Assembly (NCBI GenBank): GCA_964016885.1 | Contig: CAXHJY010001167.1 | Location: 1 to 64,000, forward strand | Direction of reading: 5' to 3' | DNA length: 64,000 nt | Origin: Eledone cirrhosa | Taxonomy: Eukaryota | Part shown: positions 2,961 through 63,583 of the stretch, in pieces | How the letters are laid out: every line of letters starts with the position of its first letter | Position numbering within the stretch: the first letter of the stretch is position 1 | Program-made: the position numbers and the translations under genes | Notes under the pieces: model-generated | Databases searched by the model: none | The model's input: only the letters and a program-made list of their open reading frames with translations | Told to the model about the DNA's origin: nothing

Positions 2961-3940
2961 TATGTATTTATATACAGAAAACACTCGGTTTAAATTATTA
3001 ATAGGGTAGGTTTTGTCCGCGTGTATTGACCTGACATTTTCATTATTTTCTTTAATATTACTGTTACAAAGCTATGTAATGAATGGAGGCCGAGGGGACA
3101 GTATCATAGCCGAGGAAAACTGTTGGACGAGAGAGAGTATGAGATTAATTCGTTTGTGGACATTATATGGAGAGTGGCACCAAATAGGAACAAACGAAAC
3201 CGGATAGAGAACGTCTTCGCTTCACTCTGGGCAAATAATGATTCAGAATGATGATTATGATGGTGACAGCGATGAAGATGATGATGATCATCATCATCGT
3301 CATCATCATCATGATCATGATCATGACGATGATGACAATGATGATCATGATGATGATGATATAACTATCATATACTCCCACTGCTTAGGACTCAACTCAA
3401 TAGATATCTTAATTGGCCACTGACATGAGCGGTACTTTTATTTCTGGATATTACATGTAAGTAATATATTATATAACTCCGCGATTAGATATTTCCTGCT
3501 GCTTGTTTAGATGATATACATGCCCTCTGATGAAAACCTAACTAGTCCTGAAAATTGGTAAATGGTGTTTATCATTTTTTCAGTTTACGCATGTTTGTAT
3601 GTCTATATACTAAAAATGTGTAAACTTATATACATATTTATTTAGTTTAGGTGTCTTCCATTCTGTATATATATATATATATATATATATATATATATAT
3701 ATATATTTAGAAACACACAGATACATGCGGACACACACATATATACATGAATGCATCCGCACCCAACTGTGAGTTAAGGGTGCTAACTTCACCGATGTTG
3801 CTCAATGAATGACTGGGACAGACCAATTCAATTTGAACTAGACTGAACCACTATCAGAGTTAAAAATACATTATGAAGAGAGAAGAAACATTTAGATATA
3901 ATTAGTAATAAAATGTATCATACCTAAACTGTTCCTAAAT

Positions 3941-4028
3941 TCCTCGACTACGTAGTTTCGTGGCATAAACAAAAACAATATATCAAAGATATAGAGTCCT
4001 TGCGAGGTCTGCCGACTTATCAAGAGGA
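3941..4028 (-). ncRNA. Type I hammerhead ribozyme, U3-A8 core variant (mirror copy)
   Basis: Near-exact reverse complement of 4698-4786. Confidence 0.8.
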
Positions 4029-4697
4029 TACCTCATTTTACTAGTCTCAAGAACGCGTCTACACGACGTGAGAAAGAATCCCAAAAGGCGGAGGGGGAGA
4101 TAGTCACGCGATATAACGGTCGAGAAACAGAGCTAAGCCTCTTATAACCACGAAGAAAATACCACGGAGGCGGAGGGGGTATTCATATCGAGGCCGTAGA
4201 AGAGGTAGTGAAGAAGGCGAGAAGTATGAGTAATGGAAGCTTTCCAGTTGTCCCCACACTTCAAAGATTGCTCGACCAGAGGGAGTTATTAATATTATTC
4301 AAATTGAATTGGTCTGTCCCAGTCATTCATTGAGCAACATCGGTGAAGTTAGCACCCTTAACTCACAGTTGGGTGCGGATGCATTCATGTATATATGTGT
4401 GTGTCCGCATGTATCTGTGTGTTTCTAAATATATTAATAACTCCCTCTGGTCGAGCAATCTTTGAAGTGTGGGGACAACTGGAAAGCTTCCATTACTCAT
4501 ACTTCTCGCCTTCTTCACTACCTCTTCTACGGCCTCGATATGAATACCCCCTCCGCCTCCGTGGTATTTTCTTCGTGGTTATAAGAGGCTTAGCTCTGTT
4601 TCTCGACCGTTATATCGCGTGACTATCTCCCCCTCCGCCTTTTGGGATTCTTTCTCACGTCGTGTAGACGCGTTCTTGAGACTAGTAAAATGAGGTA

Positions 4698-4786
4698 TCC
4701 TCTTGATAAGTCGGCAGACCTCGCAAGGACTCTATATCTTTGATATATTGTTTTTTGTTTATGCCACGAAACTACGTAGTCGAGGA
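4698..4786 (+). ncRNA. Type I hammerhead ribozyme, U3-A8 core variant, long stem II insert
   Basis: Stem I TCCTC/GAGGA; core TTGATAA; stem II GT(C)GGCA...TGCCAC; GAAA; palindromic stem III ACTACGTAGT; predicted GUC cleavage after 4781. Confidence 0.8.
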
Positions 4787-5987
4787 ATTTAGGAACAGTT
4801 TAGATATGATACATTTTATTACTAATTATATCTAAATGTTTCTTCTCTCTTCATAATGTATATATATATATATATATATATATAGAGAGAGAGAGAGAGA
4901 GAGAGAGAGAGAGAGACTGTGTGTGTGTGTGAATTAGAAATGTATATGTATGTACAAAAAAATAAGATAGTAGGGAACAACTTTGGAAAATAAACCGATA
5001 AAGAGAAGCACCGCATATACTTCTCTCTGGTAACATTCTAGGTAGGTCTATCATAGCTAGGAGTACCATATGGGACCATTTAATGAATTAAGAAAGAACA
5101 GTTAGCCAACTTCCTTAGGAAGTCTTAGTTTTAACCCTTGACACCAAACCTCTTGAAATAAGCCCTGAATCTATGATACAAAACGGTTTTGCTTGAAAAT
5201 GTTCATATTTATTTTAAACCTTCCGTCTTAATTTTATATAAGAAATGTTAAGTTCCAGGCACCAGCTCAATAATAAGAAAGTTAGTTATATTACTAAACC
5301 CTCAAATTTCTTGATTATTTAAACAATTATTTGAAAAGCATAAGTAGTGTCTTTTCTTAGAAATATGGTAACGAAACGATTAAATCACCGAATCTCCACC
5401 ATATAGTTGTGAAAAAGATATTAATGTCATCAACATAATCTTTGGTTAAGTCTTATGTGCGCAAGTTTACCAGGTGTTCGTGAGTTCAATTCTCTGATAG
5501 CCTTTTCGTATATATCCTAATCTAAGCTGAAGACGCGAGTGAAATCACAGCTAATACCATCATATCGCGGGAAAATCTAATTTCGTGGTCTGAATAGAGG
5601 ATTCAGTTCAAATTTGTGAGACCATTACGGAATACTAGAGGCCCCTGAATACGACCGGAATGTATAGCCATCAAGATGTTGTTGCTACAATAACCAAGAT
5701 ATGAACATAATGGGAGATATTATTTTGCGTTCATTTTGCCCTGCTTACACAGGTTGGATTAAGCCATGGCTTATCTAGGTTTTATGGGCATTAAGCGGCT
5801 GACAAAACAAGACAACCCTCCCATCTGAAAAACTGAAGCAACGTGGAAATGAAGTGCTTAGCTCAAGGAAACAACACGTTACCCGGTCCGGGAACCCTTG
5901 ACCTTATGATATGAACACAGAAGTAGACAACATGCCTTCACTTATAACTACAATATATGTTTCAATTCTATATTTCCTATTTTGCAG

Positions 5988-6051
5988 ATTCATTCACTCG
6001 AACCGTTGATTGAATTGGTTATTCAAGGTTATCTCGTCCCTCTCATTAATG
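5988..6051 (+). CDS. LBP/BPI-family lipid-binding protein, third-last exon (IHSLEPLIELVIQGYLVPLIN-)
   Basis: tttgcag acceptor and gtaagt donor; 64 bp, phase 0 to 1; splices in frame to the next exon; typical BPI C-terminal motif 'lvPliN'. Confidence 0.88.
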
Positions 6052-6395
6052 GTAAGTTCCCCCACATCTCTTTTCCATTTCTCTTTTTTACCCTATGTTA
6101 TATCTAGTGCACGATATGCTCCACATGGTAGGATACGTTTATCTTGAGGGAAAAGAAAAGTGTAGGGTTTCGGACAGAAGACTTTGCGTCGCAAGACGAA
6201 ATGTTTATTATTAAACACATAATTTTCTATCCAATGAAATATTCTGTTATATTCTTCTCTTCAGCTATGTTGAAAAGTAAGACTCCCCACTGCCACTCTA
6301 CTCACCAGTATTGAGTGCTCAATTATTTAACGTCTGAGTGTTATAATACTGCGGGATTTCAAATACGCATATGCACACGCACACACCTTACAGCC

Positions 6396-61821: not shown

Positions 61822-62430
61822 TGGTGGCTGCCAACTCGTTTTCGAGTACGGCCACTACTTTATATCCATGTAGGAGAACCCCTACCGATGTGCTGAACGA
61901 GTGTGACTTTTTAGTCCAGCCAGCGACTTGAAAACTCTGGTACAAACACTACACTTGTGACAATTACTGACACATAGTGCTGGGCCCATGGTACCATGTG
62001 ACGACAAGTGCAGAGAGATCTCCAGATATAAAGCAATGCCTGTGCCGTGAAGCTTTTATAGTGAGCAAAGGCACTGCACAAAGCCAGTCCCACTCTCTTA
62101 ACCAAGATGATATTTACCAAAAAGAAGAACAAGTCAACATCATTGGATACCATCAGGGTTGCAGGTGTTATATCAGAGTTTTCCTTCTCCTAGAATTCTG
62201 CCTTGACAAAGGCTAAGGGGTCATCTCTCCCGGTGATTTTGGATGGCCATTGACTCTTAAGAGCTCCTTTGCCCTTTGACAGGTTTTGTTTTTAGTCCTG
62301 CAGGATGTCCAAAGTCACCCGCCTCACCAAGAAACCTTGGTGGGGTTGCCAGTTTAGTCGCCAACGACCCGACCATGGGACAGGTTGTACTGGGATACAT
62401 GTTACCAGTAGCACCAACTGGTGACCTGAC
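61821..62430 (-). mobile_element. Family A RTE-derived element, full length
   Basis: Near identical to 11137-11746; intact C2H2 remnant [23 protein letters not shown] at 61882-61953. Confidence 0.82.
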
Positions 62431-62442
62431 ATAATATACTCA

Positions 62443-62480
62443 CCTTTTGAAAAGCAGAAGAACTGCGAAACCGGTAAAGG
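62443..62480 (+). ncRNA. Minimal type I hammerhead ribozyme, U3-A8 variant
   Basis: CCTT-TTGAAAA-GCAG AAGAA CTGC-GAAA-CCGG-TA^-AAGG; palindromic ACCGGT stem III. Confidence 0.82.
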
Positions 62481-63490
62481 AACCAAATAAATATATATAT
62501 TTAAAAAAAAAATAAGACTTCAGTTGCATTTTCGATTTCATCCCTTTTTCTTTATACTTCCACTCGTGTAGGACACCTCGGTTATTTTTCATTTTGTAAA
62601 AAAAACCTCACTTTCTAATATATATATGTATATATATATATATATGTATATATATATATACATGTATATATATATATATGTATATATATATATATATGTA
62701 TATATATATATATATATGTATATATATATATACATGTATATATATATATTTATGTATATATATATATATATATATATATATATATATGTATATATATATA
62801 TGTATATATATATATATGTATATATATATATATATATATATACATATATATATATATATACATATATATATACATATATACATATATATATATATATATA
62901 CATATATATATACATATATATATATATATATACATATATATATACATATATATATATATATACATATATATATACATATATACATATATATATACATATA
63001 TATATACATATATATATATATACATATATATATACATATATATATATATATATAGATATACATATATATATATATATATATACATATATATATACATATA
63101 TATATATATATATATATATATATATATACATATATATATATATATATATATACATATATATATATATACATATATATATATACATATATATATATATATA
63201 TATATATATATATATACATAAATATATATATATACATGTATATATATATATACATATATATATATATATATACATATATATATATATATACATATATATA
63301 TATATACATGTATATATATATATACATATATATATATATATACATATATATATTAGAAAGTGAGGTTTTTTTTACAAAATGAAAAATAACCGAGGTGTCC
63401 TACACGAGTGGAAGTATAAAGAAAAAGGGATGAAATCGAAAATGCAACTGAAGTCTTATTTTTTTTAAAAATATATATATTTATTTGGTT

Positions 63491-63528
63491 CCTTTACCGG
63501 TTTCGCAGTTCTTCTGCTTTTCAAAAGG
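63491..63528 (-). ncRNA. Minimal type I hammerhead ribozyme, U3-A8 variant (mirror copy)
   Basis: Exact reverse complement of 62443-62480. Confidence 0.82.
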
Positions 63529-63583
63529 TGAGTTGAGATGGAGGGTCTGTGGTTTTTCTCACATCTGGTTGGTCTCTAAATGT

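Follow-up and report, generated by a model that had tools for sequence, protein, structure and literature searches.

A 64,000-nucleotide stretch of Eledone cirrhosa DNA (positions 1 to 64000 of contig CAXHJY010001167.1, in a 3.0-Gb genome of 1,796 contigs; referred to here as the window) was examined for hammerhead ribozymes that adjoin (TA)n microsatellites. The units carrying these ribozymes are very probably the 3' ends of at least five families of Penelope-like elements (PLEs) lying in (TA)n. Four of these families (B, C, D and E) would be truncated from elements encoding a reverse transcriptase (RT) and a GIY-YIG endonuclease, the fifth (A) is non-coding and likely copied by such enzymes, and from the structure of the insertions we infer that reverse transcription is primed at two sites. 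An earlier note, made from the letters of this DNA alone, had described minimal hammerheads of the PLE type, from unrelated families and tied to (TA)n, and this description was borne out.

Hammerhead folds in the window and in random DNA

The window was scanned with type I hammerhead descriptors, the strict tier of which required a palindromic stem III of at least 3, a stem I of at least 4 and a stem II of at least 3, with 100 block-wise dinucleotide shuffles as the control. Three hammerheads were detected in the strict tier and none in any shuffle, and the loose tier gave five, compared to 0.66 ± 0.84 per shuffle (maximum, 4), indicating that hammerheads are commoner here than in dinucleotide-shuffled sequence. 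The descriptor scan detected two cores each of family A (UUGAUAA, with ACUACGUAGU as stem III) and family D (UUGAAAA, stem III ACCGGU) and one of family B (CUGAUGA, stem III AUAUAUAU); the A and D cores are of the U3-A8 kind and the B core is canonical. With CUGANGA or U3-A8 cores, GAAA..UH, stems I and II and a palindromic stem III, all three fit the minimal hammerhead of PLEs. In all five families the stem III word was self-complementary (5/5), with homoduplex energies of -1.7 to -13.3 kcal/mol.

Neither copy of unit C was matched by the type I descriptors. Read by eye, the copy at 45593 to 46106 retained its core, a stem II and ACGU, with a stem I of only ~2 bp beside the core, and the copy at 43345 to 44790 had lost the U and C after GAAACG, i.e., the cleavage triplet; GAAACGTC was retained in 11 of 30 loci related to C, again by eye. 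The window copies of C and E depart from the canonical core, that of E by a U4C change. The earlier proposal of type I hammerheads with a palindromic stem III in four units was therefore upheld for A, B and D, which stood above the shuffles, and was weaker for C, which the descriptors missed. All main units were multi-copy in the genome, as had been anticipated.

A list of eight further cores fared less well. That at 10239 marked a real family (E), with its true core being CCGACGA near 10172 rather than CTGATCA at 10227. Position 28030 marks the 3' terminus of a multi-copy family that carries a GAAA-palindrome, and no core was seen upstream of it. Among 267 loci sampled from the genome, no match was detected for 18090, 26073, 41645, 59791 or 60048 and one weak match was detected for 3527; 26073 and 60048 resemble decayed cores, by eye only. 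One core absent from that list was found at 24888 (−).

Thirty-eight 10-kb stretches chosen at round-number positions (380 kb of random DNA) were put through a strict scan, which detected 16 hammerhead folds, with 0 or 1 in each of 10 shuffles. The corresponding density of ~42 per Mb, on the order of 1e5 in 3.0 Gb, is a rough figure; one match looks doubtful, and A, C and E escape the descriptor. Thousands per genome were reported with other descriptors in PMC4209133. In that study, minimal hammerheads in PLE ends were described as type I, with a short stem I, a palindromic stem III, a U3-A8 variant, low dimer activity and many families per genome, all but the activity being features in common with the units here, and opposite-strand pairs 100 to 700 bp apart were noted there as here. 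An Rfam scan of the window was uninformative on hammerheads, the 150 matches listed of 298 all being microRNA models on microsatellites.

Coding relatives of four families and the non-coding family A

Family B was located 1.1 to 1.6 kb downstream of an endonuclease, on the same strand, in 11 of 12 7-kb loci, and its coding copies contained KSDKT (the DKT motif), a CNCRDESNC linker (CxCX5C), CHLC and CRH. For E, a Hydra-type RT and/or endonuclease was present between arms 4.5 kb apart in two loci (L330 and L331), with a CNCKKRDEC linker (read from the DNA), CRLC and CRH; DKT was not seen in these copies, which are truncated or broken. Judged by this motif set (DKT, CxCX5C, CxxC/CxH and no CCHH), B and E are PLEs of the Hydra clade. 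The Hydra-clade elements described in PMC8557442 have in common with B and E the DKT motif, the CxCX5C linker, CxxC/CxH around the endonuclease end, a hammerhead and insertion into (TA)n; B and E differ in having longer UTRs (untranslated regions) than those of the <3-kb elements described, tails of ~80 to 100 nt and, in two E subfamilies, non-canonical cores. A reading of E as a short element, either non-autonomous or arranged in tandem, was dropped because the first 100 of 3,177 matches had no same-strand neighbour within 1 kb and because coding copies exist.

Copies related to C extended upstream into a GIY-YIG domain, for which a first look at the genome gave 31,802 candidates. An 823-amino-acid open frame in one locus (L170) comprised RT, a CX4CXXC linker and the endonuclease, followed by a C-like UTR with 68 to 72% identity; another locus (L173) had a C-like UTR at 80% identity, and the nearest C subfamilies (80 to 85% identity to the window copy) have broken frames. 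Pfam analysis of the C-type frame gave RVT_1 with an E value of 2e-4, below the cut-off, and did not report GIY-YIG; the endonuclease part had a similarity of 0.96 to 0.97 to GIY-YIG clusters in a protein atlas. Loci fetched with the endonuclease ran on into same-strand D ~1 kb downstream in 20 of 20 cases, with frames of up to 603 amino acids that were cut by the locus edge. The linker read CSRPRCNTC in L170 and CGRSNCGTC in L189, and C..C and H..H were present within the endonuclease. By linker and CCHH motifs, C and D are assigned to the joint Neptune/Nematis type. They resemble the endonuclease-positive Neptune/Nematis PLEs of PMC8557442 in having RT, a CX2-5CxxC linker and, at the C terminus, a GIY-YIG domain with CCHH, together with a hammerhead near the 3' end, 5' truncation, an inverted 5' arm, a tail and a TA bias. 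Departures from that description are the long, low-complexity 3' UTRs (1.0 to 1.5 kb) of both families and the ~61-nt tail and U3-A8 core of D.

Because other loci of B, C, D and E lead upstream into sequence that codes for RT/GIY-YIG, the window copies of these families are best regarded as 5'-truncated products of coding elements. Coding partners were thus found for these four families, and the characterization of the system as mostly non-autonomous could not be maintained for four of the five. No intact PLE RT was present inside the window, in agreement with the earlier note; a broken two-armed PLE with RT and endonuclease begins ~100 bp past its end. This element (L139; contig positions 64100 to 68760) is arranged head-to-head, and a relative with an open frame of 773 amino acids was seen in L126.

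Family A is a tandem unit with a monomer of 591 to 592 bp, in arrays of up to ~10 units. A 16-mer from its ribozyme had 8,017 exact copies in the genome, and a control 16-mer had none. In the first 100 places, same-strand neighbours were spaced 587 to 607 bp apart (32/32) and opposite-strand neighbours were head-to-head (16/16). The monomer has a longest Met-started frame of 75 amino acids, a GC content of 41.6%, one type I hammerhead and a circular fold with a z score of -4.6 relative to 40 shuffles, and each of the 45 complete clusters that were examined contained A sequence alone. The same monomer and tandem junction were seen in a subfamily at 81% identity. Variants private to an array were common to all monomers on both arms (L266, L136 and L211), and the median number of differences per 425 nt was 1 within arrays and 5 between them; such sharing is as expected if one template variant was copied in one event. 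A motif scan for GIY-YIG and RT in the first 122 loci gave no match in A loci, a result short of a genome-wide exclusion.

Among listed sequencing runs, none of RNA was recorded as containing unit A. In contigs from four sequencing runs, the monomer end was bridged to its start in three of four; tandem DNA alone explains this, and it has no bearing on expression. In runs X1 and X5, A appeared as one closed 620-nt contig with a depth of ~8 each, and X2 gave 1,213 variant A contigs, the kinds of run being unrecorded. The suggestion that TA at the monomer junction is a target relic was abandoned, as the older subfamily has another junction sequence there.

These features make A, on its sequence, a non-coding, retrozyme-like unit that was likely copied by PLE enzymes. 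The earlier label of retrozyme-like therefore suits this one unit, and B, C, D and E are instead PLE ends. Non-LTR retrozymes were defined in PMC7229834, and a preprint (bioRxiv 10.64898/2026.07.22.740005) argues that retrozymes derive from PLEs. Like the metazoan retrozymes of these two sources, A consists of non-coding tandem monomers with one type I hammerhead each, a GC content below 45%, a strong fold and PLEs in the same genome. It is longer than the 170 to 400 nt of retrozyme RNAs, a range given in PMC7229834 as typical and not as a strict criterion. It differs further in its stem II, which is long and bulged, in a palindromic stem III of 10 nt and in bearing the full PLE signature (ends 159 nt apart, head-to-head arms and a TA target), with no parent PLE among the sampled loci.

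Two fixed 3' ends and models of insertion

Copies of A, B, D and E ended at one of two fixed 3' sites, e1 and e2, with a tail between the sites of ~159, 80 to 90, 61 and 100 nt, respectively. In head-to-head insertions, one arm ended at e1 and the other at e2. Over all sampled loci, 98 of 104 classifiable pairs were e1/e2, and a further 24 pairs, of 128 in all, had an end at neither site. Because some loci had been fetched by queries that contained an end, pairs were recounted without those copies and without same-length duplicates. The cleaned count gave e1/e2 in 47 of 50 classifiable pairs (of 68 pairs in total; p = 2e-11, with 0.5 taken as the most favourable null), made up of 10/10 for A, 10/11 for D, 7/9 for E and 20/20 for B. 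Four e1/e1 cases were seen over all sampled loci, three of them E copies with a SINE (short interspersed element) between tail and arm. Insertions of a 190-bp SINE recur within E and B elements, at AT-rich sites, and part tail from arm (for example, at 9903 to 10096 of the window).

A TA run was present directly 3' of the end in 39 of 42 copies of A (e1), 41 of 53 of C and 14 of 17 of D (e1), as counted from bins with at least two copies, compared to a background of 1.2% of positions (1254/101,060). The claimed association of the 3' ends with (TA)n was thereby confirmed. In single-armed A copies, TA-like sequence was also seen, by eye, at the random 5' end in 14 of 17 cases, as expected for insertion into an existing tract.

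An insertion of this form could be produced if the PLE endonuclease nicked both strands of a TA tract and each free DNA end primed reverse transcription of the element RNA, with the start at one of two fixed sites inside it, downstream of the ribozyme. Two 5'-truncated cDNAs joined back to back would leave one arm with the tail and one without it, and priming from one end only would leave a single 5'-truncated copy. The RNA of family A would be cut to monomers by dimeric hammerheads and then circularized, giving several identical monomers per insertion, and would make use of a PLE protein. Tail-to-tail pairs, such as that of D, would arise separately, when a broken TA tract folds back and copies its flank. 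In vitro, the Poseidon PLE protein cleaves and extends both target strands, with two internal RNA start sites defining the tail (PMC11167929). A stronger form of this proposal is one that we regard as plausible but short of probable: one protein dimer would prime both strands of the cut TA tract at two fixed RNA sites, making tail and inversion one event; A would be a 591-nt protein-less ribozyme circle riding on both arms by rolling-circle copying; and some Hydra-type hammerheads would have lost catalysis and been kept as a fold while the element spread.

Several observations weigh against insertion of PLE products by two-site priming. An end at neither site was found in 18 of the 68 cleaned pairs, and 3 of the 50 classifiable pairs break the e1/e2 rule. 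Family C, in which truncation and inverted arms are present, showed one end only, with the same end used twice in one of its three two-armed loci. A low-stringency BLAST search of the A monomer against the sampled loci gave only A subfamilies, down to 72% identity, and no coding partner. Most coding copies seen were broken, and no complete intact element was established. Tails of ~60 to 160 nt are longer than the 30 to 40 bp described for PLEs (PMC8557442), and Poseidon, the subject of the in vitro work (PMC11167929), belongs to a clade other than those of the families here. Tail-to-tail structures in random DNA showed weak TA specificity, with 3 of 343 TA tracts and 1 of 503 other tracts (p = 0.18).

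Head-to-head arms could also arise by self-priming on an antisense transcript and not from both target strands, a route put forward for Penelope elements of rotifers on the basis of palindromes found where inverted copies join (PMC3846280). The arms overlap in sequence, and simple twin priming on one RNA would need strand displacement or two RNAs. Antisense self-priming does not, however, obviously predict outer ends that differ by a fixed tail in 47 of 50 pairs, and both-strand extension from two start sites was obtained in vitro on sense RNA (PMC11167929), so that we consider this route quite unlikely. Still less likely is the production of the TA tracts by the elements themselves, through slippage tails at insertion. 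In the template, each of the two A ends is followed by a short TA-like stretch that could seed slippage, and (TA)5+ covered 4.7% of the bases in the 38 random stretches; against this, TA stands on both sides of elements and also where their 5' ends are randomly truncated, unrelated families are crowded into the same tracts together with an RTE-like element, and insertion of Hydra families into (TA)n has been reported (PMC8557442). For the A arrays, satellite-like growth after insertion by unequal crossing-over, without circular RNA, has been suggested in the case of vertebrate retrozymes (bioRxiv 10.64898/2026.07.22.740005), and recent local duplication can also make homogeneous arrays. The arrays here are short and scattered, stop in TA at the same two fixed sites and have several monomers on both inverted arms with private variants in common, and the monomer and junction are retained at 81% identity; growth by crossing-over is therefore improbable, although less so than the preceding two alternatives.

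It was also considered whether the hammerheads are catalytically idle, at most protein-binding folds, with uncut RNA being transposed. Family E provides the natural variants that bear on this point. Its three subfamilies have the cores CUGACGA, CCGACGA (the window copy) and CCGUCGA, with 88 to 90% identity within and 76 to 82% between them, and exact E 15-mers numbered 1,204 genome-wide with CCGUCGA versus 596 with the canonical CUGACGA. Subfamilies with altered catalytic cores (U4C, or U4C plus A6U) have thus been amplified, to at least 1,204 copies, and the E stems were paired in 88% of cells despite these changes. Covariation in the stems (27 distinct of 40 rows) was weak and amounted to three pairs changed on both sides, a value reached in 5 of 500 shuffles and also by slid controls, which gave up to 3 such pairs, with three related subfamilies driving the signal. 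Either cleavage is dispensable for spread or the altered cores would work with help. Dispensability agrees with the in vitro system, in which insertion proceeds without ribozyme cleavage and catalytic mutants left it unaffected (PMC11167929), with the poor cleavage of minimal PLE hammerheads (PMC4209133) and with Xenopus dimers, of which 8 of 9 did not cleave (bioRxiv 10.64898/2026.07.22.740005). On the other side, A and D have a compensated U3-A8 pair that is active in other hammerheads (PMC3088659), B is canonical, and a U4C viroid variant keeps enough activity in vivo (PMC3088659). Idle folds could hold for E yet not for A, and as an account of all the hammerheads this is a possibility that we judge somewhat doubtful, though less so than the three alternatives above.

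The hammerheads of PLEs, their U3-A8 core variant, the tails, the inverted copies and the bias to TA have already been described in print. PMC8557442 covers the Hydra clade and describes inverted 5' copies, a bias to TA and a 30- to 40-bp tail that is often confined to one end, and PMC13282606 reports 31 recently active Penelope-like families in Octopus vulgaris, with hammerheads unmentioned in its accessible text. Hammerheads in PLE ends near TA tracts are therefore ordinary in themselves, and the weight lies in the end rule, the PLE signature of A and the altered cores. In the literature searched, where subscription papers and supplements were thinly covered, no count of an e1/e2 rule, no retrozyme with PLE tails and inverted arms and no amplified subfamilies with altered cores like those of E were found; the family lists of PMC8557442, the preprint tables or Repbase may hold these families already. 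How PLEs make tandem and inverted structures, the role of the hammerhead and the mobilizer of retrozymes are questions posed in print (PMC8557442, PMC11167929 and bioRxiv 10.64898/2026.07.22.740005). The families of this genome are young and very abundant, and their two fixed ends can be followed from one copy to the next. A non-coding unit shares their insertion signature, and the cores vary naturally. With this material, the start site on each strand, the acceptance of retrozyme RNA by a PLE protein and the need for cleavage could be tested directly.

Tail-to-tail duplications and neighbouring elements

Plain repeat searches of the window were swamped by microsatellites, and a masked self-BLAST was used instead. 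In its SINEs and microsatellites, this genome is reminiscent of those of octopods. The hammerhead units and related structures are listed in Table 1.

Table 1. Hammerhead units and associated structures in the window
Feature	Position	Strand	Details
Family A, left arm	3707..4295	−	one full 591-bp monomer, terminates at e2 within (TA)n; core UUGAUAA 4023, cleavage predicted after position 3946
Family A, right arm	4298..4861	+	5'-truncated monomer plus monomer ending at e1 in (TA)n; core UUGAUAA 4703, stem III ACUACGUAGU, predicted cleavage after 4781
Two-armed insertion of family E (end of a Hydra-type PLE)	9814..10305		inverted tail 9814-9909, nested SINE 9903-10096, short inverted piece, then sense copy
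Family E sense-copy hammerhead	10166-10258	+	core CCGACGA, stem III ACGCGCGU
Extra PLE end	24722..24900	−	core CUGAUGA 24888, 6-bp stem II; kin of coding element just beyond the window
Family B, Hydra-type PLE end	25293..25532	−	sense body 25445-25293, core 25389, predicted cleavage after 25345; inverted tail 25441-25532
Tail-to-tail inverted duplication, ~33 nt	27915..28056		around (TA)n 27948-27978; 3' end of another multi-copy family; no upstream core seen
Family C, copy 1	43345..44790	−	Neptune/Nematis-type PLE end with its C/A-rich 1.45-kb 3' UTR, truncated a short way downstream of the open reading frame; core 43448-43442
Family C, copy 2	45593..46106	−	5'-truncated and shorter than copy 1; core CUGAAGA 45712-45706, weak stem I, stem III ACGU
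Inverted duplicate of 63130-63534	62437..62841	+	181 nt of family D, core 62447, plus a TA microsatellite of ~225 nt with interruptions
Family D, 3' end of second Neptune/Nematis-type PLE	63354..63583	−	core UUGAAAA 63524, stem III ACCGGU, predicted cleavage after 63495

The two D copies are the reverse complement of each other at 403 of 405 positions, the ~225 nt of microsatellite and its interruptions included. The inverted duplication noted earlier is real in this case, as a tail-to-tail duplication of existing DNA and not as two insertions or a head-to-head element pair, and it would be explained most simply if a broken TA tract had folded back and copied its flank. In element-selected loci, tail-to-tail structures were detected at 7 of 923 TA tracts versus 1 of 1120 other tracts (p = 0.018); a previous count of TA-specific fold-back in random DNA (4/637 versus 0/596) was not significant. 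The idea that the elements generate the long microsatellites of this genome did not gain support, the only sign of lengthening being the duplicated tract of the fold-back, which nothing here ties to PLE enzymes.

A 609-bp RTE-like element was present at 11139 to 11747, 12458 to 12972 and 61823 to 62431. It has two fixed ends, always lies between microsatellites, carries a C2H2-like coding remnant at its end and looks like an RTE with an internal deletion, and it was found, whole or in part, in 11 of the 38 random stretches. Causation of the D fold-back by the adjacent copy was unsupported, as this element is normally flanked by TA on both sides. A block of the 609-bp element, the D fold-back, TA and D occurs on both sides of the broken PLE beyond the window (61823 to 63583 and 69141 to 71047), representing either a large flank duplication or an assembly artefact.

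Some other repeats of the window had a comparable structure. A two-armed element with a tail at 44870 to 45578 is multi-copy and has 183-bp inverted arms with 99.5% identity; a hammerhead was not confirmed in it. Multi-copy units between TA tracts at 49368 to 49500 and 42656 to 42810 have relatives with GAAA followed by a palindrome and are probably further PLE ends. Three related copies of another TA-flanked repeat family were located at 58890 to 59180, 59500 to 59650 and 60277 to 60480.

A broken long interspersed element (LINE) occupied 52400 to 57800 (+), with AP endonuclease, RT and zf-RVT domains detected by Pfam in three frames, and is presumably of the L1/Tx1 type. A 70- to 71-bp tandem repeat on both of its sides (51500 to 52109 and 57807 to 58405) may be its target. 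At 30778 to 31617, a 37-bp satellite (22.7 copies, 97% matches) resembled part of a SINE.

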